Assembly: GCA_050015375.1 (NCBI GenBank)
Contig: JBEKBN010000006.1
Location: 454 to 64,453, forward strand
Length of the DNA stretch: 64,000 nt
Source of the DNA: Minisyncoccia bacterium
GTDB taxonomy: Bacteria > Patescibacteriota > Minisyncoccia > 2-02-FULL-40-12 > IGHO2-01-FULL-4-A
Direction of reading: 5' to 3'
A model generated the notes under the pieces. That model made no database searches and was not told the origin of the DNA. It worked only from the letters and a program-made list of their open reading frames with translations. Both the position numbers and the translations under genes were made by a program. This document shows, one piece after another, positions 4,873 through 44,390 of this stretch. Position 1 is the stretch's first letter, and every line of letters begins with the position of its first letter.

Positions 4873-5742
4873 ATGACTGATAATCTAGTCGGGGCGGTGC
4901 CGGATGACAATCTTGGCATCGTGGAAGATGTAGCTCGCCGTTTGCGGAAGGAGAAAGGTTTTCCAGAACGGATCAAGTTATTCTTGGCTGGAAAACTTCA
5001 GCCAGCAGAAGGTGTTAAGATCATCCCGCGTCCTTTTGCCAAACTTGATCGGATGCTCTCGCGCCGTTTCGGCGAGAGGATTTATGTGAATCCTTATCCG
5101 AAAGAATTCACGCCGGAATTTCTGGCCAATGCTGTGAAATACAATATGCGGCCGGTATTTTGGCCAGGCAAAGATATGATCCCGGACCTCCGGCTGAAAA
5201 AGTGGATTATGCCGAATGCCTGGTTTTACAACCAAGTGTTTGCCGGTAAAATCAAATCCCATGGCGATTTATCGCCAACGAAACTCCAACGCGGTTGGTA
5301 TCTCGCCGATTTCACGATTGGCGCGGACTACACCGACGGCACCCAGGTCTTTATTGACGACCCGTTCGCGCCGATAATCGCGAAACTGCGGGAGCAGAAG
5401 CTCGTTGGCAAATATGACAACACGCCGGTAGGTTCACGCTTCTCAATCGCCCGGAACGAATGGCAAGATTGCGTTTTAGCTCACATTGCCTCCGCTCTAA
5501 ATGTTACCCGATCTCAAATCCGTCTGGAGCGGGCGATTGAATTTAATGCGATTGGAAATCTCTATGATCCTAATCGTGGGAAATTCAAGATGTGGGAATG
5601 GTTTGCCGATCATTTCGGGGGCTCCGGCCGGCTTGTCGGCGGTAGCCGTGGCGTTGGCGGGCTCGCGGGTGTCTGCTGCGTTTGGTTCTGCGATTGGAAC
5701 GATGACATCGCCGCTCGTCCTCTGGTGAGTTTCGTTTCCTAG
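4873..5742 (+). CDS. hypothetical protein with a GC-rich Gly-rich C-terminal tail
   Basis: 289-aa ORF with strong SD AAAGGAGAA. No motif recognised. The last roughly 45 codons are markedly GC-rich. Confidence 0.5.
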   Translation: MTDNLVGAVPDDNLGIVEDVARRLRKEKGFPERIKLFLAGKLQPAEGVKIIPRPFAKLDRMLSRRFGERIYVNPYPKEFTPEFLANAVKYNMRPVFWPGKDMIPDLRLKKWIMPNAWFYNQVFAGKIKSHGDLSPTKLQRGWYLADFTIGADYTDGTQVFIDDPFAPIIAKLREQKLVGKYDNTPVGSRFSIARNEWQDCVLAHIASALNVTRSQIRLERAIEFNAIGNLYDPNRGKFKMWEWFADHFGGSGRLVGGSRGVGGLAGVCCVWFCDWNDDIAARPLVSFVS

Positions 5743-5848: not shown

Positions 5849-6574
5849 ATGTATTTATCCGTCATTATTCCCGCCTACAACGAAGAAAAAAGGATCGGCA
5901 AGACGCTTTTGGCGGTGGATGAATATCTATCGGGACAAAAATACGATTCTGAGATTATCGTGGTGGATAATAATTCAAAGGACAAAACGGCCGATATTGT
6001 CAATAATTTAAAATTTAAAATTTATAATTTAAAATTAATTTCCCAGCCAATTCAAGGCAAAGGCAATGCCGTAGCCAAAGGAATGCTTGAAGCATGGGGC
6101 GATTATCGGGTTTTCATGGATGCCGACAATTCCACCTCCATAGATCATATTGAAAAAATGTGGCCGTTCATTTCGACCGGTTACGATGTTGTCATAGGAT
6201 CGCTCGCGGTCAAAGGCGCAAAGATTCTCCAAGGCGGAGCCGAACCGTGGTGGCGAGTGCTTTTGGGGAAACTCGGCAACAAATGGATCCAGATCTTCGC
6301 GGTCTGGGGAATAAACGATACCCAAAGAGGTTTCAAAATGTTCACGGCCAGAGCGACGGAAAAAATATTTCCGAAATTGACAATATTTGGCTGGGGATTT
6401 GATGTCGAAGTTTTGGCTTTAGCAAAAAAATACGGATACAAAATAAAAGAAATTCCGATAATCTGGGATAACGACCCAAATTCAACGGTGAATTTCTGGG
6501 CCTATCCACAAGTTTTAATGCAAACCGTAAAAGTCAGATGGAATCTATTGATCGGGAAGTATAATAGCCATTAG
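5849..6574 (+). CDS. family 2 glycosyltransferase (dolichyl/polyprenyl-phosphate sugar transferase-like)
   Basis: N-terminus SVIIPAYNEEKRIGKTL...IVVDNNSKDKT...DADNS carries GT2 DxD-type motifs. Confidence 0.8.
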   Translation: MYLSVIIPAYNEEKRIGKTLLAVDEYLSGQKYDSEIIVVDNNSKDKTADIVNNLKFKIYNLKLISQPIQGKGNAVAKGMLEAWGDYRVFMDADNSTSIDHIEKMWPFISTGYDVVIGSLAVKGAKILQGGAEPWWRVLLGKLGNKWIQIFAVWGINDTQRGFKMFTARATEKIFPKLTIFGWGFDVEVLALAKKYGYKIKEIPIIWDNDPNSTVNFWAYPQVLMQTVKVRWNLLIGKYNSH

Positions 6575-6638: not shown

Positions 6639-7646
6639 ATAAACGAATTTAGGCAAGATCTGGTTTCGGGCGAATGGGTGCTTTTCGCGACCGGAAGAGC
6701 GAAGAGGCCGGGCGAACCAACGGCGAACGGCAACGGCATCCGCATCGGCAAAAATTTTGAGGATTGTCCTTTCGATGACCCGGAAGCGAAGGGCAATGAG
6801 GTCTTGATGACCTATAAAAACGCCGACGGCTCGGATTGGTTCGCTAAGATCATCAAAAACAAATTTCCGGCGGTTTCCGAAGGCGAAATGGCGCCCCGCC
6901 AGAAAGTTGGCCCTTTCGAGGTGACCGATGCCAAGGGTTTGCACGAAATTTTGATCTTCAAAGATCATAATAAATCTCCATATCATTTGTCGCCAAAAGA
7001 ATTTTCAGAAATTATCAGGATCTACCGCGACCGTTATTTGACTTTGGCCGGCTACAGCGGCAGCAAATATATTTTGATATTTCACAATCACGGCTTAGCC
7101 GCCGGCGCCAGCATCCCTCATCCCCATTCCCAGATAATCACCATTCCGATCTTGCCACCCGACATCAAGCGGAGCATTTTGGGTTCGGAACGCTTTTACC
7201 GCGAGAACGGAAAACGGGTCTATGACCTGATGCTTGACTGGGAAATGAACGACAAAAAGAGGATCGTGGCTGAAAATGACGATTTTGTGGCATTTTGCCC
7301 GTTCGTTTCCAAAACCCCTTATGAAGTCAGGATATTCGGCAAAGAAAGCCACGCCCATTTTGAAAGAATTCCCGACCCCAAACTTCAGACATTGGGGGAA
7401 ATTATGAGCAAAGTTATGCGGAAGGTCAGCAAGGCCTTGAATGCTCCGGATTTCAATTATTTCATCCACACCGCGCCGACCGACGGCATGAGCCAAGATG
7501 TCCATGATTTTTACGCTTGGCATATTGAAATTTTACCCAAAATGAAAATTGAAGGCGCGTTCGAACTTGGCAGTGGCGTGGAGGTGAATGTAGTTGATCC
7601 CGACGAAGCGGCGAAACTTTTACGCGAAGCTGAAGTTGAAAATTAG
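6636..7646 (+). CDS. galT: galactose-1-phosphate uridylyltransferase (HIT family)
   Basis: TTG start. N-terminus GEWVLFATGRAKRP, a CPF zinc motif and the HIT-like active site PHPHSQI. Confidence 0.8.
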   Translation: MINEFRQDLVSGEWVLFATGRAKRPGEPTANGNGIRIGKNFEDCPFDDPEAKGNEVLMTYKNADGSDWFAKIIKNKFPAVSEGEMAPRQKVGPFEVTDAKGLHEILIFKDHNKSPYHLSPKEFSEIIRIYRDRYLTLAGYSGSKYILIFHNHGLAAGASIPHPHSQIITIPILPPDIKRSILGSERFYRENGKRVYDLMLDWEMNDKKRIVAENDDFVAFCPFVSKTPYEVRIFGKESHAHFERIPDPKLQTLGEIMSKVMRKVSKALNAPDFNYFIHTAPTDGMSQDVHDFYAWHIEILPKMKIEGAFELGSGVEVNVVDPDEAAKLLREAEVEN

Positions 7647-7648
7647 AG

Positions 7649-8260
7649 ATGTCAATATTTACCGCGATCATTAACTGGGCTTTGGCGATCATCGGCGCGA
7701 CTGGATATTTGGGCTTGTTTTTGGCGATGATGTTGGAAAGCGCCGGCGTTCCGATCCCCTCAGAAGTCGTTTTGCCATTCGCCGGTTTTTTGGCGGCTTC
7801 GGGGAAATTCAGTTTGATATTGGTGATCGTAGTGGCCACTACCGCCAACTTGACCGGCGCGCTCATTTTTTTCACTATTGGATATTTTGGCGGCACGAGA
7901 TTTTTACGAAAATATGGACACTTTTTATTTATACGCGAAAAAGAAATTTCGAGAATGGAGCGTTGGCTTGACCGCCACGGCGGCAAGGTCGCTTTTTTCT
8001 CAAGGATGTTGCCCGGCGTCAGGACCTACAGCTCATTGGTGATAGGTTCGGGCAAGTCAAGATTGCGGACGTTTATCGGTTATACGCTTCTGGGCTCGGT
8101 CATCTGGAATTCCATCTGGGCCTATCTCGGATATTACACCGGAAACCGCTGGGAAATATTCGGACCCTACGTCAGAAAATTTGATTATTTAATTCTGGCA
8201 GCGATAATCATTTATATCATTGCTTTTTTTGCCAGACATTTCGGTAGAAAAAATAAATGA
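7649..8260 (+). CDS. DedA/SNARE-associated family membrane protein
   Basis: Multi-TM protein with a DedA-type motif (GLFLAMMLESAGVPIPSEVVLPFAGFLAASG). Confidence 0.75.
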   Translation: MSIFTAIINWALAIIGATGYLGLFLAMMLESAGVPIPSEVVLPFAGFLAASGKFSLILVIVVATTANLTGALIFFTIGYFGGTRFLRKYGHFLFIREKEISRMERWLDRHGGKVAFFSRMLPGVRTYSSLVIGSGKSRLRTFIGYTLLGSVIWNSIWAYLGYYTGNRWEIFGPYVRKFDYLILAAIIIYIIAFFARHFGRKNK

Positions 8261-9015
8261 AGACATTAGTAGCAAACTGGAAAATGAATCCCCAAAAATT
8301 GGCTGAAGCCGAGGAACTTTTTGAATACACCATCGCCGAATCGGCCAAATATCCGAACGTCAAAACGATAATTTGTCCGCCGTTCGTCTTTATTGAGGAA
8401 TTGTCCAAATTTCTACAAACTACAAACTACAAACTACAAACTAGCATCGGTTCCCAAAATATTTTTTGGGAATCCAAAGGAGCATATACCGGTGAGATTT
8501 CCACCGAGATGCTGAAAAATTTCGGCGTTAGCCATGTTTTGGTCGGCCATTCCGACCGGCGATATGTCATCGGCGAAACGGACGAGGAAATTAATAAAAA
8601 AATAAAAGCCGCGCTTTTGACCGATATAACCCCGGTGCTTCTAGTTGGCGAGAGAGAAGGCGAGAACCGCGAAGAAATTTTGAGGAAACAATTATCCGCT
8701 GACCTGGCCGGCGTTTCGGCGCCCCATTTGGGGAAGATCCTTTTTGCCTACGAACCGGTCTGGGCAATAAGCACAAATCCGAATGCAAAACCCGATACGC
8801 CCGAAAACACTTTGAAGGCGATCACATTTATAAATAATCTTCTTGCTATCAGCTATAAACTACCAGCCATAAGCTGTCTCTATGGCGGTTCGGTCAATGA
8901 AAAAAATATCGTTGATTTTCTCAAACATCCGGAAATCTCCGGCGCCGTCGTCGGCGGAGCCAGTTTGCGAAAAGAAGAATTTGGAAAAATGTTAAACTTA
9001 GTTTCAACAATTTAA
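8257..9015 (+). CDS. tpiA: triosephosphate isomerase
   Basis: ANWKMNP...VGHSDRRYVIGETDEEI...GGAS motifs. Overlaps the dedA stop (ATGA). Contains an in-frame heptamer-repeat insertion. Confidence 0.9.
   Translation: MKTLVANWKMNPQKLAEAEELFEYTIAESAKYPNVKTIICPPFVFIEELSKFLQTTNYKLQTSIGSQNIFWESKGAYTGEISTEMLKNFGVSHVLVGHSDRRYVIGETDEEINKKIKAALLTDITPVLLVGEREGENREEILRKQLSADLAGVSAPHLGKILFAYEPVWAISTNPNAKPDTPENTLKAITFINNLLAISYKLPAISCLYGGSVNEKNIVDFLKHPEISGAVVGGASLRKEEFGKMLNLVSTI
8413..8447. repeat. (CTACAAA)x4 heptamer tract inside tpiA, in frame, encoding LQTTNYKLQT
   Basis: Four perfect CTACAAA units plus a degenerate fifth (CTAGCAT). They map to a loop that is shorter in B. subtilis TPI. Confidence 0.7.
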
Positions 9016-11102: not shown

Positions 11103-12254
11103 ATGAAATATCGCGATCCATTGTATGGGGAATGGGAATTACCACCGGTTATTAAAGAATTGGTCCAATCTCGAGCGATGGACAGATACCGGAAGATCAC
11201 CATGTCTTTGTTGCCAAATTCCATGGAACCGCTGGGGACAATTCCAAGCCGATTTCATCATGGAATGGGCGTCTGTTTTTTGGCCCAGGTGGTCGTTGGA
11301 AATAGCATCTCATGGCCCGAAGCAGTTTTCGATCCTTTGGTACTGTTGGTTGCTTCACTGCTTCACGATATCGGCAATCCGTCTTTTCCGCATTTGTCTG
11401 AACCATTTTTAATAGAATTTTGGGGTAAAAATGGTGAAACATTCGCCGCGGACATTATCGCCGGTACGGATATTCCGGAAATTCTCGAGAAATATGATAT
11501 TCCAATCGAAAATGTTCTTGATTTCATTGCCGGAACATTAAGGCCGTATTCAGATGTTCTGAACGGTTCGCTCGATCTCGATAATCTGGACACTCTCCGC
11601 TATGATTATTTCGCGAAATTGGGTGGAATTGACTACGACCCGGTCAAGATCGCCGGAAGTTTCCGGTTTAAAAATAACCGCTGGGTTTTGGATAAAAAAT
11701 GCCAAAGCAATGTTGCCGCATGGAAAATGAATCGGGGAATGGTCTACCGTAAGATTTACAGTTCTCAACATTTGTCTGTGGTTTCAATGGTGCATCGGGC
11801 GCTTGAACTCGCGTTTTTAAAAGGCGAGCTGAACCACGATTTTTTCTTCCTGAATGACGAAGAGGCGGTCAATTTCCTTCGAACCAAATGCAATCCAAAA
11901 ACGGCTAAACTGATGGATATGGCGACGAGATGGCAGTGGTATGATCTGGCTTACGATTATCAGACGACAAATCCCAACCAATGGTTGATTAAAGCATCAA
12001 CTGGCTGGCGAAGCAGGAGGGCCTTGGCTGATGCGATCTGTTTGGACCTGCATTTGTTGCGTGAAAACGTCTGTGTTTATATCGACCGAGGGAGAGACAC
12101 GAGAAGGATCAAAATCCCATTTAGCGACGGGAAAAACCTTGTATTCGATGATGAAGTCGAGATTCCGATTTATCGAATAAAAGTATTTATGGATCCATCC
12201 ATTGGTTACACGAGAAACGATATTAAAGAAATTATTGATGACCTCATCAACTAG
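11103..12254 (+). CDS. HD-domain phosphohydrolase-like protein
   Basis: H...LLHDIGNPSFPH...D pattern typical of the HD superfamily. Confidence 0.6.
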   Translation: MKYRDPLYGEWELPPVIKELVQSRAMDRYRKITMSLLPNSMEPLGTIPSRFHHGMGVCFLAQVVVGNSISWPEAVFDPLVLLVASLLHDIGNPSFPHLSEPFLIEFWGKNGETFAADIIAGTDIPEILEKYDIPIENVLDFIAGTLRPYSDVLNGSLDLDNLDTLRYDYFAKLGGIDYDPVKIAGSFRFKNNRWVLDKKCQSNVAAWKMNRGMVYRKIYSSQHLSVVSMVHRALELAFLKGELNHDFFFLNDEEAVNFLRTKCNPKTAKLMDMATRWQWYDLAYDYQTTNPNQWLIKASTGWRSRRALADAICLDLHLLRENVCVYIDRGRDTRRIKIPFSDGKNLVFDDEVEIPIYRIKVFMDPSIGYTRNDIKEIIDDLIN

Positions 12255-12279
12255 CGGTCTTAAACAGCCGCTTTTTTTA
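12253..12279 (+). terminator. Rho-independent terminator of the HD-domain gene
   Basis: AGCGG-TCTTAAACAG-CCGCT hairpin followed by T7. Confidence 0.6.
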
Positions 12280-12281
12280 TG

Positions 12282-12311
12282 CAAAAAATCCGCTTGAAAG
12301 CGGATTTTTTG
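12282..12311 (-). terminator. Rho-independent terminator for rnpB (minus strand)
   Basis: ATCCGC-TTGAAA-GCGGAT hairpin flanked by A6 and T6. On the minus strand it is followed by a U-run. Confidence 0.55.
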
Positions 12312-12875
12312 ATGTCTTGGCAAATCTGTAAGCCGAATTCTGTTCCCCCACTTTTTGAGTTGCCCCAAAAGTGGGGGAGGCGATCATTTATCTGGTCCCT
12401 CGGTTACCCTCGGGATCTAGCGTCTCTTCCCCCACTTTTTAAGTTGCCCTAAAAGTGGGGGACACGGACTTGCACCGGGCAGGGTTTAGCGCGCATCCAT
12501 GTCGCCATGGAGCGGTCCCGTTCGGGGCCTTTTCACCCGTGATCCGCTTGCGCGGACTCGGAATAGTTTCTGTGCCACTTTCCCTGAATTTTGATAAATA
12601 ACTTTTGTCTTAAGAACAAAAACTATCCATCTTATATTCGGTGGCCATTAGCCACTGCCCTGCTTACGCAATCACCAACTGCTAATCTCTAATCTCAAAT
12701 AAAACCATTGGCGATCTTAGTTAACAATTAATGATTGCGTAAGCGGTGTTCGGACTTTCCTCCCTAAAACATTTTGCTTTCGCAAAATGTTCGGGCGATC
12801 AATTCGCAAAGCGAATTGATTTAGCCCCAAATCCAATAAGAATTCGTAGAGTAATCACCCGATTTACCAGGACTT
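12312..12875 (-). ncRNA. rnpB: RNase P RNA (bacterial type A-like) with an extended helix and twin hairpin insertions
   Basis: Reverse complement carries GGGAGGAAAGUCCGAAC (P4 5'), CAGGGCAG, AGUGGCACAGAAAC, CGCGCAAGCGGAUCACGGGUGAAAAGG, CUAAACCCUGCCCGGUGCAAG and ACAGAAUUCGGCUUACAG (J/P4 3'). These align with E. coli M1 RNA. The 5' and 3' ends are approximate. Confidence 0.8.
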
Positions 12876-36412: not shown

Positions 36413-39400
36413 TTGTTTATGAAAATAAACAAACTTGGGGGGGGGCTTAAGTGGTCGATTTTCGCAACTCTTTTAGCAACCGCTCTAGTAGGCGGATTTT
36501 TTGTACACAATGCCAAGGCGACTGTTAGCACCTGTTCTGATATCACCCTTGGTGTGACTCAAATCACTGCTATCCAAACCTATGCCACCGCTGACAATAC
36601 TTTTGCCGACGGCTGGAAATGGGTTTTCAATGTTACCGTTCCGACTTGCCAAACACTTCTTCAAATGAGATTCGGTGACTGGGTTGGAACCGCTGGCACC
36701 ATTCCAGCCGCGACAAATATTCAATTTTATTCTAATCAATCTACAAATGCAGCCGATGAGGCGCACGCAATAATTATCAGTGCCGCTAATACATATAGTG
36801 GTTTGATGATCCTTTCTGGTGCTGATCTTGATGGGTCAACACCCGGCACCCAGATCCAAATAACAGTTGAAGCGAGAGTTCCAATTGATTCAGCTGGTGG
36901 TTCTTACTCGACAAGTTATGGCATACAATCGAATCCTGCACCGACCGTTCTATTCGTTCTCCCTATCGGTAACATCAATGTTGCTAATGGCACCGCTCTT
37001 GATGCTGTAGGTTTGCCGGCTAATGCTACCGTAGGTTTGAGCAACGGAAACACTCAATTAATGGCAGTCGTTTGGGATGGTGGTACGCCAACTTATGACG
37101 GCACAACAGCTGGCACCTATGCTTTTACAGGTGCATTGACTTTACCTGCTGGTGTTACTAATCCGGACGGCAAAACAGCCAACGTAAACGTAATTGTGGA
37201 ACCAATACCTACCCACACCATTACCTCCTCTGTTGTAGGCGCATCTGTCTTTGGTCCGAAACACGGCACGATTTCTCCTCTCGGTGCAACGACCGTGAAT
37301 GATGGCGACAGCCAGACCTACACGATTACGCCCGATACCGGCTACCAGATTCTTGAGCTTAAAGTGGACGGTGTTTCCACAACGCCGGCCGACAGTTATA
37401 CTTTCACCAATGTCACAACTGACCATACCATTGCCGTGAGCTTTGCCCCGATTACTTATACCTTAACCTATTCCGCCGGAGCCCATGGTTCCATTGTTGG
37501 AACTTCGCCCCAGGCAGTAAATTACGGCGCTGATGGAACAGCCGTGACTGCGACGCCAGCCGAGGGTTATCATTTCGTAGGTTGGAGCGATCAGTCAACA
37601 ACTAATCCGAGAACCGACAACGATGTAACCGGCAATATTGATGTCACTGCCAGTTTTGCAGTTAACCAATATACAATTACTTTTGGTTCAAATGGTGGCT
37701 CAGCCGTAGCTTCCATAACTCAGGATTATGGCTCACCGGTTACTCCACCAGACGATCCAACTCGAGCAGGTTATACCTTCGCCGGTTGGGTTCCAACAGT
37801 TCCGGCAACGATGCCATTAGGCGGAGCGAGTTTAGTTGCCCAGTGGACTGCTGTTGTTGCACCAATCACCCACACTCAAAAGGATCTGACGACTTGGGTT
37901 CCGATTCAGGGTGGAATAACTGCCGATGTAACAATTTCAACAGTAAATAATAAATTCCACGCAGACGGAGTTCCAACTGGATATACTTTGGTGTATTACC
38001 CTAATGTTGGAACTTATGATACCTACACTGGAGAAGTTTATCCTGTAGAGGGCACTAATATGGATCTTCCAATGTCAGATGATTTGAATCGCGGTAAAGA
38101 AGATTACTGCAATAATGGATTTAATCCACACGCAATTCACTGTGATGGCGCTAAGTTGTGGCTTGTTCCAACCGAAGACATATCAACAACAATTAATTCT
38201 GATGGAAGCCAGACATTGGTTGGAGATTGGAATACGATCGCTCCGAATATTTTGTTCGAGACAAATCTGATAACTTATCAAGCAACTCCGATCACTCACA
38301 CCCAAAAGGATCTGAACACCTGGGCTCCACTTCCAAATGGAATAACTGCCGATGTTACATATGACCTGACCGGAGATACTTTCCAAGCGACCGGAGTTCC
38401 ACCTGGATATACTTTGGTGTATTATCCTAAACCCGCAACTTGGACCGGATTGGTCTATTCCGTCATTGGTAATAGCATGACCCTTCCAATGCCAGGTGAT
38501 TTGAATGGTAGTCCATCATCAGATTACTGTACCGTTAGAAATAGTGAGGGGAATTTGGAAAATCCGCATGAAATAATTTGCCAAGGAGCCGCGTTGTGGC
38601 TTGTTCCAACGGGTGAATTAACAGATAACCACGATGGGACTTATACAATTAATTGGGGCACTGCTTCTGATATTTTGTTCGAGACAGACCTGATAAATTA
38701 CACAGCTCCGACTTCTACCCCAAGCGCTAATCTTATTCTCACCGCTCCAGATGCCACAACTATTAATCAATCTGCTTTAGTTCCTGAAACGAGCAACGGA
38801 ATACCCACTGGCGGAAACTCAACAGTTGATACTGCCATCAATGGCCTTAGCCCGATTGCGGTGAGGTTGCAGAATACCGGCGATGCCGCTTCTGCTAATG
38901 TTCGCATCAGCCCGATTGGCGACGCTTCTGGGCACATTCAGTTATGGGCAAAAGATACTTTAGGTAATTGGTATGACATCAATGTTACTGGCTGGGGGCC
39001 AGCCGAAGGTTTTCCAGTGCCAGCCCCATACGATGCCACTACTAATGTCTATGCGATTTCCGACGAAGTAGGATCTTATGACATGATAGCTAATTTGATT
39101 TTGGTAAGTAATTCATCACTCGTTGCGCACACAAAGGGAATAATTACCGTTGCCCCTGCCCCGACCCTTTTGTTTGATACCGGCATCACTGATGGTTCCA
39201 CTATCTTACCGGGTACACTTGCAACTCAGTTCACGATTACAACTACGGGTGTCCCGGGTACGATGCACACGCTTGGGTTAACGGGCACCACAGCAACTCC
39301 AGCTCTTGCAGATGGCAATTATGACTTTAAGCTTGTGGCAACCTCAGACGTGCAAGCCGCTTTGACTTCTTATTTTGGAGCTAAGGCAGGATGGACTTCG

Positions 39401-40051
39401 GATATGCAAATGCAAACTCAAATCAATTCTGAAATTGCTGGCAGCTCGCCATTCTTCAAACTAAACGCTGCCAGCGGCGCCTATTCCTTAGTGGATAATT
39501 TCAAACAAACACTTGGCTTGCCAGATACATCCCTGACTATTGATGATGATTATCCAACCGGCACATACGTCTATACCGGCACACTTACTGGAACAAACAG
39601 CGCGACCCTGCCGGTTACTGTAACATTGGTAGTTGAAGGACCAACTCCGCCACCAACTCCTTCTGTAACACAATTGAAAATTATTACTAATCCGCAAACT
39701 ATTCTGGTAGATACCGCTTCAGGTGTGATTAGAGTGGAATCAGAGGACGCGTTAGGGAATCCATTAAAAGTTTCAGTTGCGACAGAAGTAGATTTCACCT
39801 CCAGTCCTGGAACAGGTTTGTTTTCTTCGGCAAATTATGAAAGTAAAACGTGTAATGACGATTGGTTAAGCACGCAAAGTTTAACCATAGAGAAAGGAAC
39901 TGCACATATAAGTTTCTGTTACAAAGACAACGTGGCGGGAACGCCGACACTAACAGCTTCTTCTGATGACTTGACTCCTGGTACTCAAGTAATTACAATA
40001 ACCTCAACTGATACCAGCTCAACTGACACTAGCGACACCACGCAACAATAA
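36413..40051 (+). CDS. giant repeat-rich cell-surface protein (Listeria-Bacteroides/flg_new-type repeats, Ig-like domains)
   Basis: 1212 aa with a signal peptide, repeated modules (ITHTQKDL...GVPTGYTLVYYP twice) and GYTFAGW-type repeats. A G9 tract sits in the signal-peptide coding region. Confidence 0.75.
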   Translation: MFMKINKLGGGLKWSIFATLLATALVGGFFVHNAKATVSTCSDITLGVTQITAIQTYATADNTFADGWKWVFNVTVPTCQTLLQMRFGDWVGTAGTIPAATNIQFYSNQSTNAADEAHAIIISAANTYSGLMILSGADLDGSTPGTQIQITVEARVPIDSAGGSYSTSYGIQSNPAPTVLFVLPIGNINVANGTALDAVGLPANATVGLSNGNTQLMAVVWDGGTPTYDGTTAGTYAFTGALTLPAGVTNPDGKTANVNVIVEPIPTHTITSSVVGASVFGPKHGTISPLGATTVNDGDSQTYTITPDTGYQILELKVDGVSTTPADSYTFTNVTTDHTIAVSFAPITYTLTYSAGAHGSIVGTSPQAVNYGADGTAVTATPAEGYHFVGWSDQSTTNPRTDNDVTGNIDVTASFAVNQYTITFGSNGGSAVASITQDYGSPVTPPDDPTRAGYTFAGWVPTVPATMPLGGASLVAQWTAVVAPITHTQKDLTTWVPIQGGITADVTISTVNNKFHADGVPTGYTLVYYPNVGTYDTYTGEVYPVEGTNMDLPMSDDLNRGKEDYCNNGFNPHAIHCDGAKLWLVPTEDISTTINSDGSQTLVGDWNTIAPNILFETNLITYQATPITHTQKDLNTWAPLPNGITADVTYDLTGDTFQATGVPPGYTLVYYPKPATWTGLVYSVIGNSMTLPMPGDLNGSPSSDYCTVRNSEGNLENPHEIICQGAALWLVPTGELTDNHDGTYTINWGTASDILFETDLINYTAPTSTPSANLILTAPDATTINQSALVPETSNGIPTGGNSTVDTAINGLSPIAVRLQNTGDAASANVRISPIGDASGHIQLWAKDTLGNWYDINVTGWGPAEGFPVPAPYDATTNVYAISDEVGSYDMIANLILVSNSSLVAHTKGIITVAPAPTLLFDTGITDGSTILPGTLATQFTITTTGVPGTMHTLGLTGTTATPALADGNYDFKLVATSDVQAALTSYFGAKAGWTSDMQMQTQINSEIAGSSPFFKLNAASGAYSLVDNFKQTLGLPDTSLTIDDDYPTGTYVYTGTLTGTNSATLPVTVTLVVEGPTPPPTPSVTQLKIITNPQTILVDTASGVIRVESEDALGNPLKVSVATEVDFTSSPGTGLFSSANYESKTCNDDWLSTQSLTIEKGTAHISFCYKDNVAGTPTLTASSDDLTPGTQVITITSTDTSSTDTSDTTQQ
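36437..36445 (+). repeat. homopolymeric G9 tract within codons 9-11 of the giant surface protein gene
   Basis: AAACTTGGGGGGGGGCTTAAG. The only G/C homopolymer of 8 nt or more that I found in the window. Confidence 0.8.
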
Positions 40052-40065
40052 ACAACTAAAACCCT

Positions 40066-40749
40066 ATGAAAAAAAATATATTGATAATTTTAGTGTATGG
40101 ATTGCTGGCGGTGTCGCTGTTTGTGTTTGGTAATCGGGTGTTTGCGGACCAAGTCACCGGAACTCTGACAACAGGAATTAGCGGCAATAACGGCCAAACA
40201 ATGAATGGCGTGGTCATTGCTCCGCCGATACCTAGCCCATTGCCCGGAACCTATCCCTTAACACAGGATAACGTGGCCCTAAAAGTTGGTTTGTCTTCCG
40301 CCGGTTCGATGAGTATTCGCTATGCTACAGATGGGTCTGTACTGACATGCGCTAACGGGAATCTATACAATGCTAATGCTCTGATTCCGGTGAGTGTCAC
40401 AACGACAATTGAGGCAATCTCGTGTTATCCAAATGGAATTTCATCTGCGGTCGCTGGTTTCACTTATACAATTAATCCGGCGACTCCGACTCCAACGCCT
40501 ACCACATCTACTGGTGGCGGCGGGGGAGGCGGGGGCTCATATTATTCCTTTACCCCGACCCCAACTCCGAGTCCAGGTGTGGCCATAGTGGGCGATATAA
40601 ACGGTAATGGTAAGGTGGATATTAGTGACTTCGATATGTTGATGAACAATTGGGGGAAAACCGGAACTGGAATCCAAGGCGATTTGGACCACAACGGCGT
40701 TGTTGATATATTGGATTTTAATTTATTGATGGCTAACTGGAGTAAATAA
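40066..40749 (+). CDS. dockerin-domain secreted protein
   Basis: C-terminus GDINGNGKVDISDFDMLMNNWGK...GDLDHNGVVDILDFNLLMANWSK is two canonical dockerin type I Ca-binding repeats. Also carries a signal peptide and a Gly8 linker. Confidence 0.7.
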   Translation: MKKNILIILVYGLLAVSLFVFGNRVFADQVTGTLTTGISGNNGQTMNGVVIAPPIPSPLPGTYPLTQDNVALKVGLSSAGSMSIRYATDGSVLTCANGNLYNANALIPVSVTTTIEAISCYPNGISSAVAGFTYTINPATPTPTPTTSTGGGGGGGGSYYSFTPTPTPSPGVAIVGDINGNGKVDISDFDMLMNNWGKTGTGIQGDLDHNGVVDILDFNLLMANWSK

Positions 40750-40768
40750 TTACGACAAAATCACAAAC

Positions 40769-41518
40769 ATGAAAAAAATATTGTTCAGTTCAATACTGGT
40801 CACTGGATTCGCGGTTTTTTTTGTCGGAAATGCTCTGGCCGATTCATCAATATCGTTGTCGCCGGTTAGTATTTCTCCGAAAGCGGGAAGCACGGTCAAT
40901 GTTACCGTGACGGTCAATCCAAATAGCGTCAGTAATTCAACCGTAAAGCTTGTACTTAATTATCCCGCCGATCTTCTGCAAGCAACAGGATTCACTTTTG
41001 CCGGTAACTGGATGCCGTTGACTCAAACCGGTTACGATTCCATCGATAACACAGGAGGTACCCTGATTAAAACTGGCGGTTATCCGGGCGGATTCTCGAC
41101 AACCACGACCCTTGGCACGGTAACATTCAAAGCGAAGAGAACCGGCACCGGCGCAATCAGTATCGGAAGCGGTTCAATGGTTCTGGATTTAAGCAGTAAA
41201 AATGTTTTGACCGATATTTCTTCAACTGTGACAATTTCAATTCCGACTTTAACAGCGCCGACTCCGAAACCGTCAACAATTGTAGGCAATATTCCGGCAG
41301 TTTCGCCGGTAACTGGCGTCACTGAATCGGCGACGCCGAGCCCCATTGTCGCCGCCAATGCATTGCCAGCCAATGGCCAGCAATACGGCACTATCGCCAC
41401 GGCCCTCGGAATTCATAACGGCACGTGGTGGATTTGGCTAGTAGTTCTCTTGGTCATCATCTATCTCATCTATCGGATATTCAGGAAAAGATCCGGCCCG
41501 AGCCAGCCGACTCAATAA
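40769..41518 (+). CDS. cohesin-like domain protein with a C-terminal TM anchor
   Basis: Signal peptide and a beta-sandwich region (VKLVLNYPADLLQATGFTFAGNW...GTVTFKAKRTGTGAISIG) resembling cohesin. C-terminal anchor WWIWLVVLLVIIYLIYRIFRKR. Confidence 0.5.
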   Translation: MKKILFSSILVTGFAVFFVGNALADSSISLSPVSISPKAGSTVNVTVTVNPNSVSNSTVKLVLNYPADLLQATGFTFAGNWMPLTQTGYDSIDNTGGTLIKTGGYPGGFSTTTTLGTVTFKAKRTGTGAISIGSGSMVLDLSSKNVLTDISSTVTISIPTLTAPTPKPSTIVGNIPAVSPVTGVTESATPSPIVAANALPANGQQYGTIATALGIHNGTWWIWLVVLLVIIYLIYRIFRKRSGPSQPTQ

Positions 41519-41569: not shown

Positions 41570-41597
41570 TTGACAACAAAAACCAGCTTGATATAAT
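41570..41597 (+). promoter_or_regulatory. strong sigma-70 promoter (TTGACA-16 nt-TGaTATAAT) upstream of the panA-like gene
   Basis: Consensus -35 and an extended -10, about 110 nt upstream of 41707. Confidence 0.6.
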
Positions 41598-41706
41598 GGA
41601 GGTACTAAACGTGAAAAGCATCCTAGATGGGTGCTTTTCGGTCTATGGTGCATAACTTCATAGAGTTTGCCTGTTAAAACTGTCATAATTAATATAAAAA
41701 GAACTT

Positions 41707-42243
41707 ATGAAAATACCGCTACCAAAACTCAAGGCGATTATTAGGTATTTTGGTACCCATACTGATCCCAAATTTCTCGGCAAGGTTAAATTAATGAAAC
41801 TTTTCTACTTTCTTGATTTCATGCATGTCAAAAAATTTGGTGCACCCATAACATATGACTGTTATATCAACTTAGAACATGGTCCAATACCGTCAGCTAT
41901 TAAAAATCTAGTTGACTCGGCCGCAGATGATATTGATAATTCCGTCCTCGCTGACGCAATCAGGATTGAAAGACCGCAAAGTACCGATATGTACAGAGTG
42001 GTGCCTCTTAGGGAATTCAATAAAGCTGATGAAAATTATTTCTCTGAAACCGAGCTCGAAACATTAAAAAAAGTATGCGCAAGGTTTAGCGACAAAAATA
42101 CGAAATTCATTGAAGATGAATCTCACAAAGAAGCTCCGTGGAAAGAAACCAAGTTTTTGGATGTAATACCCTACGAACTCGCCACTAAGGACAAAGATTG
42201 TTTAATATCCGAAGAAGAAATAAAACTACTTCTTTCTATCTGA
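41707..42243 (+). CDS. Panacea-domain (DUF4065, SocA/PanA-like) antitoxin
   Basis: KVKLMKLFYFLDFMHVKKFGAPITYDCYINLEHGPIPS and ESHKEAPWKETKFLDVIPYELA match the DUF4065/Panacea consensus (KLQKLLYF..., SHxExPW). Confidence 0.75.
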   Translation: MKIPLPKLKAIIRYFGTHTDPKFLGKVKLMKLFYFLDFMHVKKFGAPITYDCYINLEHGPIPSAIKNLVDSAADDIDNSVLADAIRIERPQSTDMYRVVPLREFNKADENYFSETELETLKKVCARFSDKNTKFIEDESHKEAPWKETKFLDVIPYELATKDKDCLISEEEIKLLLSI

Positions 42244-42244
42244 A

Positions 42245-42655
42245 GTGCTTAACCTAATAAAATTTGGGGATGTTTTTGTTTATAAAGGTACTGAATGGGT
42301 TTTCTTGGCAAAAACCGAAGAACTCCTTTTCGCAGCCCAAATACTGGATAAAGAGCAAACGGCTCAAATAGATTTATTATTTAATAAGCTAGCCTCAAAG
42401 GGCAGCAAGATTGCCGACCAGATAAAAGATAAACCTCTTTATTGTTATGTTGTCCTCGAGACAGAAAAATTTAAAAGAAGAGCAGCTCATTTCAAAACAG
42501 CCATCAGCGGCAAAAGCGCAAATGATAATGAGCCTTTTTTTGATAAAATACTGGATCCTTTGATAAAAAGCGATTTGGTTAATATTAAAAAACAAATTAT
42601 AAATGGTCCGTTTAGCAAATTACTTAAGGATATAGTAAGGGATATTGATATTTAA
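42245..42655 (+). CDS. candidate PanT-type toxin of unknown family (136 aa), translationally coupled to panA
   Basis: GTG start 1 nt after the panA stop. No recognisable domain. Classified by its position in a two-gene module. Confidence 0.4.
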   Translation: MLNLIKFGDVFVYKGTEWVFLAKTEELLFAAQILDKEQTAQIDLLFNKLASKGSKIADQIKDKPLYCYVVLETEKFKRRAAHFKTAISGKSANDNEPFFDKILDPLIKSDLVNIKKQIINGPFSKLLKDIVRDIDI

Positions 42656-42667
42656 AATGAAACTACT

Positions 42668-43213
42668 ATGAACATACCGACGAAAATATTTTTTACAAAA
42701 GGGGTGGGAGCGCACAAAGACCGGCTGGCTTCTTTTGAGATGGCTTTGAGGAATGCCGGCATTGAAAAATGCAATCTGGTTTATGTCTCAAGTATTTTTC
42801 CTCCCCGGTGCAAGATCGTTACAAAAGAAGAAGGTATGAAATCGCTGGAGGCGGGCCAGATAACTTTTTGCGTCATGGCAAGGAATGAAACCAACGAACC
42901 CAACAGATTGATCTCTTCGGCGATCGGAGTCGCCGTGCCAAGAGACAATAGCACTTACGGTTATTTGTCGGAGCATCATAGTTTTGGAGAGAAAGCGGAA
43001 ATAGCCGGCGAATACGCGGAAGACCTGGCCGCCACCATGCTTGCCACCACTCTTGGAATAGAATTTGATCCGGCCACGGCCTGGGAAGAAAGAGAACAAA
43101 TTTACAAAGCAAGCGGGTACATATTTAAGACATCAAATTTTTGCCAGACGGCCGAAGGAAACAAAAACGGATTATGGACAACAGTCATCGCCGTCGCGGT
43201 AATGCTGGAATAA
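42668..43213 (+). CDS. pdaD: pyruvoyl-dependent arginine decarboxylase
   Basis: [37 protein letters not shown] matches the PdaD family, including the Ser-Ser self-cleavage site. Confidence 0.8.
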
Positions 43214-43265: not shown

Positions 43266-44390
43266 ATGAAGTATAGAAATCATGAAACTGAAGTTGTTTT
43301 GTTTTTCGCCGTTTTTTTGATGGGAATTTTGGTTTTTGCGGTCGGGGCGGAAAATGCCAGGGCGAGCTATCACTTTGCCAATTATCGGGGACAACCGCCG
43401 ATCCATATTTACGGCGGGACGAGTAAAACACCCAAAGGCATGACACCGGCACAAATCAAAAAAATCTACAATTTGCCGGCAAGCGGGGGCTCGGGCACGA
43501 TCGCTATTGTCGGCGCGTACGATGACGCGACGATCGAGGCCGATCTGGCTGGTTTCGATAAACAATTCAATCTCGTGTCTTGCACGACTAAAAACGGCTG
43601 TTTTGAAAAACATAAAATGAGCTCGGCAATTTCGGCCAACAGCGGCTGGGCGTTGGAGACGACGCTTGACGTGGAATGGTCGCATGCCATTGCGCCGAAC
43701 GCCAAAATACTTCTCGTCGAAGCGACGACGCCAAGTGGAGCCAATCTTCTGAAGGCCATTGATTACGCAACGGGCCGAGCCGACGCAGTGGCAATTTCAA
43801 TGAGTTGGGGCGGAGCTGAATTTCCGGAAGAAACCACATTAGATAGTCATTTCGTCAGCAAATCAGGCGCCGTCTTTTTTGCATCCTCGGGCGATAACGG
43901 CTGGGGCGCGTCTTGGCCGGCATCGAGTCCGAATGTCATCGGCGTCGGCGGGACGACCGTTGTCATGAGCTCGAACGGAACTTTTCAAAAAGAAACTGCC
44001 TGGAGCGGCAGTGGCGGCGGTGTCAGCAAATACGAAAAACAACCCGGCTTTCAGGCGGATTATTCAATAACCAAAAGCAACGGCATGCGGGCGATCCCTG
44101 ATGTCGCTTATGATGCCGATCCGGCTTCGGGTTTCCCGATCTATCGTCTTGGCATTTGGCGAACGGTTGGGGGAACTTCCGCCGGCGCGCCTCAATGGGC
44201 AGGTATCGCCGCTTTGAACCACTCGGTTTCAAACAGCAAGATTTATCAGGACAAAGCGGCCGACAATTTCGCATCATATTTTCGCGACATCGTCAGCGGC
44301 GCGAACGGCGATTGTAAATATTATTGTCAAGCCCGAAAACATTACGACTACATCACCGGCCTGGGCAGTCCTCAGACATCATCATTCTGA
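43266..44390 (+). CDS. secreted subtilase/sedolisin-like serine peptidase (S8/S53 clan)
   Basis: Signal/TM region, then SSGDNGW and GGTSAGAPQWAGIAAL (catalytic Ser motif). The subfamily is not resolved. Confidence 0.65.
   Translation: MKYRNHETEVVLFFAVFLMGILVFAVGAENARASYHFANYRGQPPIHIYGGTSKTPKGMTPAQIKKIYNLPASGGSGTIAIVGAYDDATIEADLAGFDKQFNLVSCTTKNGCFEKHKMSSAISANSGWALETTLDVEWSHAIAPNAKILLVEATTPSGANLLKAIDYATGRADAVAISMSWGGAEFPEETTLDSHFVSKSGAVFFASSGDNGWGASWPASSPNVIGVGGTTVVMSSNGTFQKETAWSGSGGGVSKYEKQPGFQADYSITKSNGMRAIPDVAYDADPASGFPIYRLGIWRTVGGTSAGAPQWAGIAALNHSVSNSKIYQDKAADNFASYFRDIVSGANGDCKYYCQARKHYDYITGLGSPQTSSF

Follow-up and report, generated by a model that had tools for sequence, protein, structure and literature searches.

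We describe here a two-gene module in a 64,000-nt stretch of DNA from an uncultured Minisyncoccia bacterium (GenBank assembly GCA_050015375.1, contig JBEKBN010000006.1, positions 454 to 64,453, forward strand), hereafter called the window. Minisyncoccota is the formal phylum name within the Patescibacteria, or Candidate Phyla Radiation (CPR). The module region, positions 41,570 to 42,655 of the window, contains panA, which encodes a standalone Panacea-domain protein, followed by the gene of a 136-aa partner without described sequence relatives. We favour, with moderate confidence, the view that the pair constitutes a type II PanAT toxin-antitoxin (TA) module, with PanA binding and neutralising a divergent toxin of the MazF fold that is probably a ribonuclease (RNase). 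The pair would probably add a new toxin family to the known PanAT system and not a new kind of system, because the pairing of PanA with MazF-like toxins has already been published. A sequence-only reading of the same DNA had proposed a PanA-type candidate TA pair whose partner is undescribed. This core stands, with two amendments: the partner is predicted to adopt a MazF/CcdB-like fold, and the autoregulation that had been suggested finds no support. The genes and their junction are as follows.

41707-42243, forward strand: panA, ATG start, 178 aa; standalone Panacea (DUF4065) protein
42241-42247, forward strand: gene junction TGA-A-GTG (panA stop, 1 nt, partner start), read from the sequence
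42245-42655, forward strand: candidate panT (the partner), GTG start, 136 aa; undescribed sequence family, predicted MazF/Kid/CcdB-like fold

The Panacea protein and the gene junction

Both open reading frames (ORFs) lie at the coordinates first proposed for them, and the two peptide blocks originally quoted as marks of the Panacea domain are located in the panA product. A hidden Markov model (HMM) search with PF13274 (SocA_Panacea) matched the complete profile (positions 1-113 of 113) with E=6.4e-19 and a bit score of 69.4 (gathering score 25.7), which bears out the Panacea/DUF4065 identity of the 178-aa protein. PanA consists of 28 residues followed by the Panacea domain (residues 29-146) and a conserved acidic C-terminal tail (147-178). 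Panacea was the sole domain found; neither a helix-turn-helix (HTH) nor any other DNA-binding domain was detected. Relatives of PanA elsewhere are 51-77% identical and share many invariant positions in the C-terminal tail. The protein is not a SocA equivalog (NCBIfam NF047745), its score of 13.9 bits lying below the cut-off of 190.

At the junction, direct reading of the letters TCT ATC TGA A GTG confirmed a partner GTG 1 nt past the panA stop. This GTG is the earliest start codon downstream of an in-frame stop and aligns partner residue 1 with the ATG starts of homologues. The GenBank annotation of the contig calls an identical protein (MGD0977154.1, "hypothetical protein ABR875_02585 [Minisyncoccia bacterium]", 100% identity). 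No Shine-Dalgarno sequence is visible at 42241-42247, and from the spacing between PanA and the partner we infer that the latter would be translated through coupling at the TGA-A-GTG junction.

Pairing of PanA and the partner across loci

Seeded with the partner, 13 of 13 distinct loci were found to carry a PF13274 gene (178-182 aa) directly upstream. Seeded with PanA, a metagenome scan returned 43 loci; in all 39 with a PanA at least 50% identical, a gene of the partner family follows directly, and the remaining 4, with a distant PanA (22-34% identity), have none. The pairing holds even for partner members merely 27-29% identical to the window protein. At locus L007, where the last 35 nt of the upstream gene remain on the contig, these encode ...KEEIELLLDL*, a PanA C-terminus. 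Altogether, PanA precedes the partner in all 52 loci examined (13 + 39), with no exception. The neighbourhood survey suggested by the sequence-only reading thus found the genes adjacent in 52/52 loci, the opposite of homologues that never lie next to a Panacea gene.

Across 42 distinct homologous junctions, the partner starts between -13 and +15 nt from the PanA stop, frequently with an ATGA overlap. The surrounding genes are unrelated: the module occurs, for example, after secY, after rpsI, beside tRNA-Asp, and next to a giant Peptidase_S74 protein. Because the neighbourhoods are unrelated, the pair is seen to move as a unit, a strictly co-inherited two-gene module. Kurata et al. (2022) delimited PanAT pairs as genes at most 100 nt apart, in an architecture present in at least two species and outside any conserved operon of more than three genes. 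The window pair falls within this in-silico definition, with a gap of 1 nt, tight homologous junctions, and flanking genes that differ per locus. The association is also reciprocal, the partner family being tied specifically to Panacea genes and not a chance neighbour (13/13 + 39/39).

The partner family

The 136-aa partner gave no sequence match in Pfam, NCBIfam, PADLOC, PHROGs or the PDB. The earlier statement that it resembles no recognised toxin family therefore holds for sequence and profile searches; it does not hold for structure, where a MazF/CcdB-like toxin fold is predicted. The protein is not an orphan, an option considered and rejected: a word-indexed search with the single protein gave 5 clusters, and searching 1.84 billion representatives exhaustively with an HMM gave 346 (clusters defined at 50% identity) at E<=1e-3, with 276 at E<=1e-10. 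The relatives are all full-length proteins of about 125-137 aa. The family alignment comprises 145 members out of the 346 clusters. No Pfam or NCBIfam family matched these 145 members consistently, even at E<=10, a profile search of the PDB with the family gave no match, and a scan of viral contigs found no relative. To judge from these comparisons, the partner family is an undescribed sequence family.

Conserved motifs in the alignment include FGDVF, YVFLAxT, YAAxIL and LYC(F/Y)VxLxTxxFxxRxAH, in addition to a near-invariant D110 (98%). T73, within an LxT motif, is conserved in 96% of members, R79 in 82% and H82 in 75%. These four positions are candidate functional residues of the partner. 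Named hosts of the family comprise Patescibacteria, Minisyncoccia, Howlettbacteria and Saccharibacteria. The pair was also observed in a metagenome-assembled genome labelled "uncultured Gammaproteobacteria bacterium" (locus L010, CAZAVD010000016.1), where every other named source is patescibacterial; this label could reflect a binning error or a transfer outside the CPR.

Predicted structure of the partner

The structure of the partner was modelled with AlphaFold2 from the 145-sequence alignment; an earlier 6-sequence alignment had given a useless model, with a predicted local distance difference test (pLDDT) value of 46. The model displays an SH3-like beta-barrel with a C-terminal helix and superposes on solved members of the CcdB/MazF superfamily. 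Compared with MazF, it has a two-helix insert (residues 36-61) and an additional C-terminal helix (125-132). The MazF/Kid/CcdB-type matches align 80-101 residues at 2.4-2.9 A, and their scores are listed below.

M. tuberculosis MazF4: score 8.9
MazF6: score 8.5
MazF7: score 8.4
Kid: score 8.2
S. aureus MazF: score 8.2
MazF9: score 8.1
CptN: score 7.6
CcdB: score 7.5
MazF3: score 7.0
A BAH domain, the next match after the toxins: score 4.6

The remote-homology and structure search that had been recommended for the 136-aa protein thus yielded a predicted MazF/Kid/CcdB fold and no sequence-profile signal. Because the structural matches come without profile-profile signal, the partner is described here as representing a new sequence family for which the model predicts an already known toxin fold.

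Proposed mechanism and alternative explanations

In the proposed mechanism, the module's own strong promoter would drive a bicistronic mRNA. The first cistron would yield the standalone Panacea antitoxin PanA, and the second, coupled at TGA-A-GTG, the 136-aa toxin. The toxin would be a very divergent member of the MazF/Kid/CcdB superfamily, in which the SH3-like barrel and C-terminal helix are accompanied by the two-helix insert and the extra C-terminal helix. PanA would probably neutralise it by direct binding, through either the Panacea core or the conserved acidic C-terminal tail, and the toxin would most likely act as a sequence-specific, metal-independent MazF-like endoribonuclease. Toxicity, neutralisation by binding and RNase activity are properties that we infer for the candidate pair.

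Several observations weigh against this mechanism. The relationship to MazF comes solely from predicted structure. PemK (PF02452) and CcdB (PF01845) match 0 of the 145 aligned members, even at E<=10, and hhalign of the partner profile with MazF, EndoA, Kid, CcdB and a 4-sequence MazF alignment (reference sequences confirmed against the PDB) gave probabilities below 1%. Foldseek searches of the PDB and BFVD with the model gave no significant match. In MazF-type endoribonucleases, the catalytic Arg is located on the beta1-beta2 loop and a Thr/Ser in the beta3-beta4 region (R29 and T52 in E. coli MazF). The partner model has a 2-residue turn where MazF has this long loop; because this turn joins the first two strands, the partner would have no equivalent of the loop Arg. 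R79 and H82 are also conserved below expectation for catalytic residues. In published assays in E. coli, no toxicity was seen for 8 of the 25 PanT candidates (PMC8832971).

The rates of divergence point in the same direction. Mean identity to the window proteins is 37% for the partner versus 64% for PanA, and PanA is the higher in 33/33 distinct pairs. In type II systems the toxin is usually the more conserved component, so the pattern found here is reversed. The slower divergence of PanA fits the conserved sensory role of Panacea proposed by Ernits et al. 2023 (PMC10440598).

Decayed copies of the module were also observed. Three loci retain an intact PanA beside a damaged partner, which carries an in-frame stop within the LYC(F/Y)V motif at L008 (536-922), an internal deletion of ~50 aa with a frameshift at L022 (1236-1700), and a deletion with a frameshift at L038 (2688-3120), whose sibling locus L028 is undamaged. 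A low-quality locus, L054, has frameshifts in both genes, and a PanA-only lesion was found at no locus examined. Lesions confined to the partner fit the asymmetry expected if the downstream gene is a toxin. They also count against that reading to the extent that three decayed partners fit any dispensable gene equally well, and over so small a number of cases the bias does not reach significance (p ~0.08 if lesions are proportional to gene length).

Most of these points would suit a conserved module whose partner is a non-toxic MazF-fold protein, nucleic-acid-binding or regulatory, that works with PanA as a sensor output or accessory factor. Such a protein would need neither the canonical loop Arg nor invariant R79 and H82 and could lack sequence similarity to every toxin family; its faster divergence, its decay, and the precedent of non-toxic PanT candidates, one MazF-like protein among them, would all be accommodated. 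We nevertheless consider this explanation, the leading alternative, somewhat unlikely. The layout is typical of TA systems, with the antitoxin first, overlapping or nearly overlapping genes, an own promoter, patchy and unrelated insertion sites and low GC content, and PanA alone is lost nowhere.

A PanAT module could instead employ a CcdB-like toxin that poisons a protein target, such as DNA gyrase, with no RNA cleavage. The C-terminal helix of CcdB serves as a protein-binding surface, and the strongly conserved C-terminal helices of the partner (D110, I118, L127) could form such a surface in a protein from which the MazF catalytic loop is missing. We judge this quite improbable, as MazF/Kid structural matches outnumber and outscore CcdB, and all MazF-fold PanTs described to date have been interpreted as RNases. 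The near-invariant T73, in its LxT strand-loop setting, may also recall the catalytic Thr/Ser of MazF, although the hhalign register for this comparison is not significant.

Reversed roles, in which PanA would be the toxic or effector element and the partner its neutraliser, would agree with the toxicity of three PanA proteins in E. coli (Kurata et al.) and with the stronger conservation of PanA, but are highly improbable given that an intact PanA beside a destroyed antidote would be lethal at three loci, that the toxin fold belongs to the partner and not to PanA, and that antitoxin-first is the commoner PanAT order.

Promoter, leader and regulation

Two features precede panA in the window.

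41570-41597, forward strand: sigma-70-type promoter with extended -10 (TTGACA at 41570-41575, 16-nt spacer, TGaTATAAT at 41589-41597)
41609-41642, forward strand: leader 5' hairpin with a 12-bp core stem (41612-41623 / 41629-41640) and a 5-nt loop

The consensus extended -10 promoter reported in the sequence-only reading was recovered with a score of 12/12 and TG at -15/-14. No other exact match occurs in the 64-kb window, for which shuffles predict 0.01 by chance. Across the family, a match of at least 10/12 was found within 150 nt upstream of PanA at 59% of loci versus 9% of shuffles, and one of at least 11/12 at 27% versus 0.6%. The upstream sequences themselves are neither alignable nor conserved between homologous loci.

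The leader spans 109 nt from the -10 hexamer to the panA ATG. Folding of the 112 nt at 41604-41715, from about the expected transcription start through the first 9 nt of panA, gave a minimum free energy of -25.8 kcal/mol (z = -3.25 versus shuffles). A leader of roughly 110 nt with a hairpin is thus present as first described, but the U-run attributed to it amounts to just 4 U's inside the 3' stem arm. At homologous loci the hairpin is not conserved; it could stabilise the 5' end, act as a weak attenuator or represent a terminator relic. The leader matched no Rfam family, and a riboswitch or another known RNA was rejected on this ground.

The suggestion of an autoregulated layout was not upheld, because PanA lacks a DNA-binding domain, the leader is unconserved, and no palindrome overlaps the module promoter. 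Ernits et al. 2023 likewise considered transcriptional autoregulation by Panacea itself improbable (PMC10440598).

Mobility of the module

GC content is 0.33-0.38 over the module versus 0.45-0.55 in its flanks, and because of this lower value the module fits a horizontal acquisition. At locus L001 (GCA_040960315.1, JBFOMO010004922.1), a direct repeat of 69 nt flanks the pair (5197-5265 / 6427-6495); its copies share 96% identity and are spaced 1230 nt apart. The final 17 nt of tRNA-Asp(GTC) and the terminator region that follows make up the left copy. The repeat resembles an att-type duplication produced by insertion at the 3' end of a tRNA. The insert of ~1.2 kb contains just the two genes, with no integrase. 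At L040, the pair is flanked by a non-coding direct repeat (~170-255 / ~1468-1553) of about 71-85 nt, with copies about 94% identical and 1298 nt apart. A long flanking direct repeat was not found at ~30 other loci, the window included. At loci with sufficiently recent flanks, the module has the appearance of a small mobilisable cassette.

Within the window, a 9-nt repeat at both module ends (GGATATTGA) was discarded, its occurrence being estimated at chance level for a 2.7-kb region. An empty-site search with the exact pdaD protein returned contigs that all already carry the module. L001 is also rich in other TA genes, with an MNT/HepT pair and a HigB-like toxin gene (7564-8447, 11931-12395) within 6 kb of the PanA module.

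A more far-reaching proposal, which we hold to be unlikely, would combine these elements. The 136-aa protein would found a Patescibacteria-wide group of MazF-fold effectors in which T73/R79/H82/D110 replace the loop Arg in a rebuilt active site and the target or specificity differs from those of known MazF or CcdB toxins, PanA would be the conserved sensor while the effector diversifies, and the 1.2-kb recombinase-less cassette would duplicate ~65-85 nt of its target, such as the tRNA-Asp 3' end at L001.

Genes surrounding the module in the window

The neighbours of the module are chromosomal housekeeping genes. A pyruvoyl arginine decarboxylase gene (42668-43213) begins 13 nt past the partner, and a release factor, ftsE/ftsX and ABC transporters are located farther downstream. 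Just 12 nt (42656-42667), with no terminator, separate the partner stop from the decarboxylase gene, and the strong promoter of the module probably reads through into it. At 43266-44390, a 374-aa ORF has no Pfam match at E<=1 and contains a subtilase-like GGTSAGAP serine motif; it may encode a divergent secreted peptidase.

Directly upstream of the module, three successive surface-protein genes occupy 36413-41518. The first encodes 1212 aa with Big_4/Flg_new repeats, the second 227 aa with a faint dockerin match, and the third 249 aa with a C-terminal membrane anchor and a cohesin match that stays below threshold (E=3.7e-4). Together they may represent a cohesin-dockerin-type cell-surface assembly of a CPR bacterium.

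Significance of the family

With the partner family, the Panacea network gains a sizeable candidate toxin family of 346 clusters at 50% identity, none of them annotated, in hosts (Patescibacteria/CPR) that are missing from the RefSeq-based surveys that defined PanAT. The case illustrates that candidate MazF-fold toxins can escape both sequence and profile methods, and that structure prediction from deep alignments is needed to reveal them. If the toxin is active, the absence of the canonical catalytic loop would help to delimit how little a MazF-type active site requires. That the putative antitoxin is conserved more strongly than the putative toxin, the reverse of the usual pattern, is relevant to the published view of Panacea as a sensor. 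The general view of how PanAT systems work is unchanged by the window module, the pairing with MazF-like PanTs being already established.

Comparison with known systems

Kurata et al. 2022 (PNAS, PMC8832971) characterised PanA as a hyperpromiscuous antitoxin with partners from 88 toxin clusters, and a standalone Panacea domain is able to neutralise a toxin directly (PMC10440598). PanT clusters T5, T6 and T29 are MazF-like (EndoA/MazF/Kid/CcdB), with HHpred probabilities above 99%. Among the four MazF-like PanTs tested, those of P. moraviensis (T6) and B. ruminantium gave validated TA pairs, that of C. bovis was toxic but had a PanA that was toxic too, and that of F. xanthum showed no toxicity (PMC8832971). 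Literature searches found no paper linking Panacea with Patescibacteria. Cluster T14 of Kurata et al., which includes Saccharibacteria, was considered and rejected as a counterpart, being HigB-2/YoeB/ParE-like with a PanA that carries an HTH.

Among more distant systems, the type III CptIN, ToxIN and AbiQ modules differ in that the protein-coding panA sits where their tandem RNA-repeat antitoxin array would be. Between 41300 and 42900, tandem repetition is limited to a 9-mer in two copies (41457-41474) within the upstream gene, and a type III RNA antitoxin was excluded because no repeat array precedes the module. With SocAB of Caulobacter, the window module shares an antitoxin that carries PF13274, SocA being a Panacea-domain ClpXP adaptor for the toxin SocB. 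The window partner, however, shows no relationship with SocB, and a proteolytic-adaptor mechanism is not indicated for the window PanA. Unlike MazEF, Kis-Kid and CcdAB, the module employs a Panacea antitoxin instead of an AbrB-type or ribbon-helix-helix DNA-binding protein (MazE/Kis/CcdA), and because of this it shows no obvious autoregulation. Its partner also lacks the PF02452 or PF01845 signature and the catalytic Arg loop of those toxins.

The closest resemblance is to the MazF-like PanAT systems. The window partner family is set apart from T5, T6 and T29, as published descriptions present them, by the absence of sequence or profile similarity to MazF/CcdB, and from MazF-like PanTs by the two-helix insert, the extra C-terminal helix, the missing long beta1-beta2 loop and the patescibacterial host. 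Like those systems, the window module has a standalone ("noNTD") Panacea antitoxin encoded first, a toxin gene that overlaps it or follows a few nt downstream, a MazF/PemK/CcdB fold, predicted in the present case, and the organisation of a chromosomal, mobile two-gene module.
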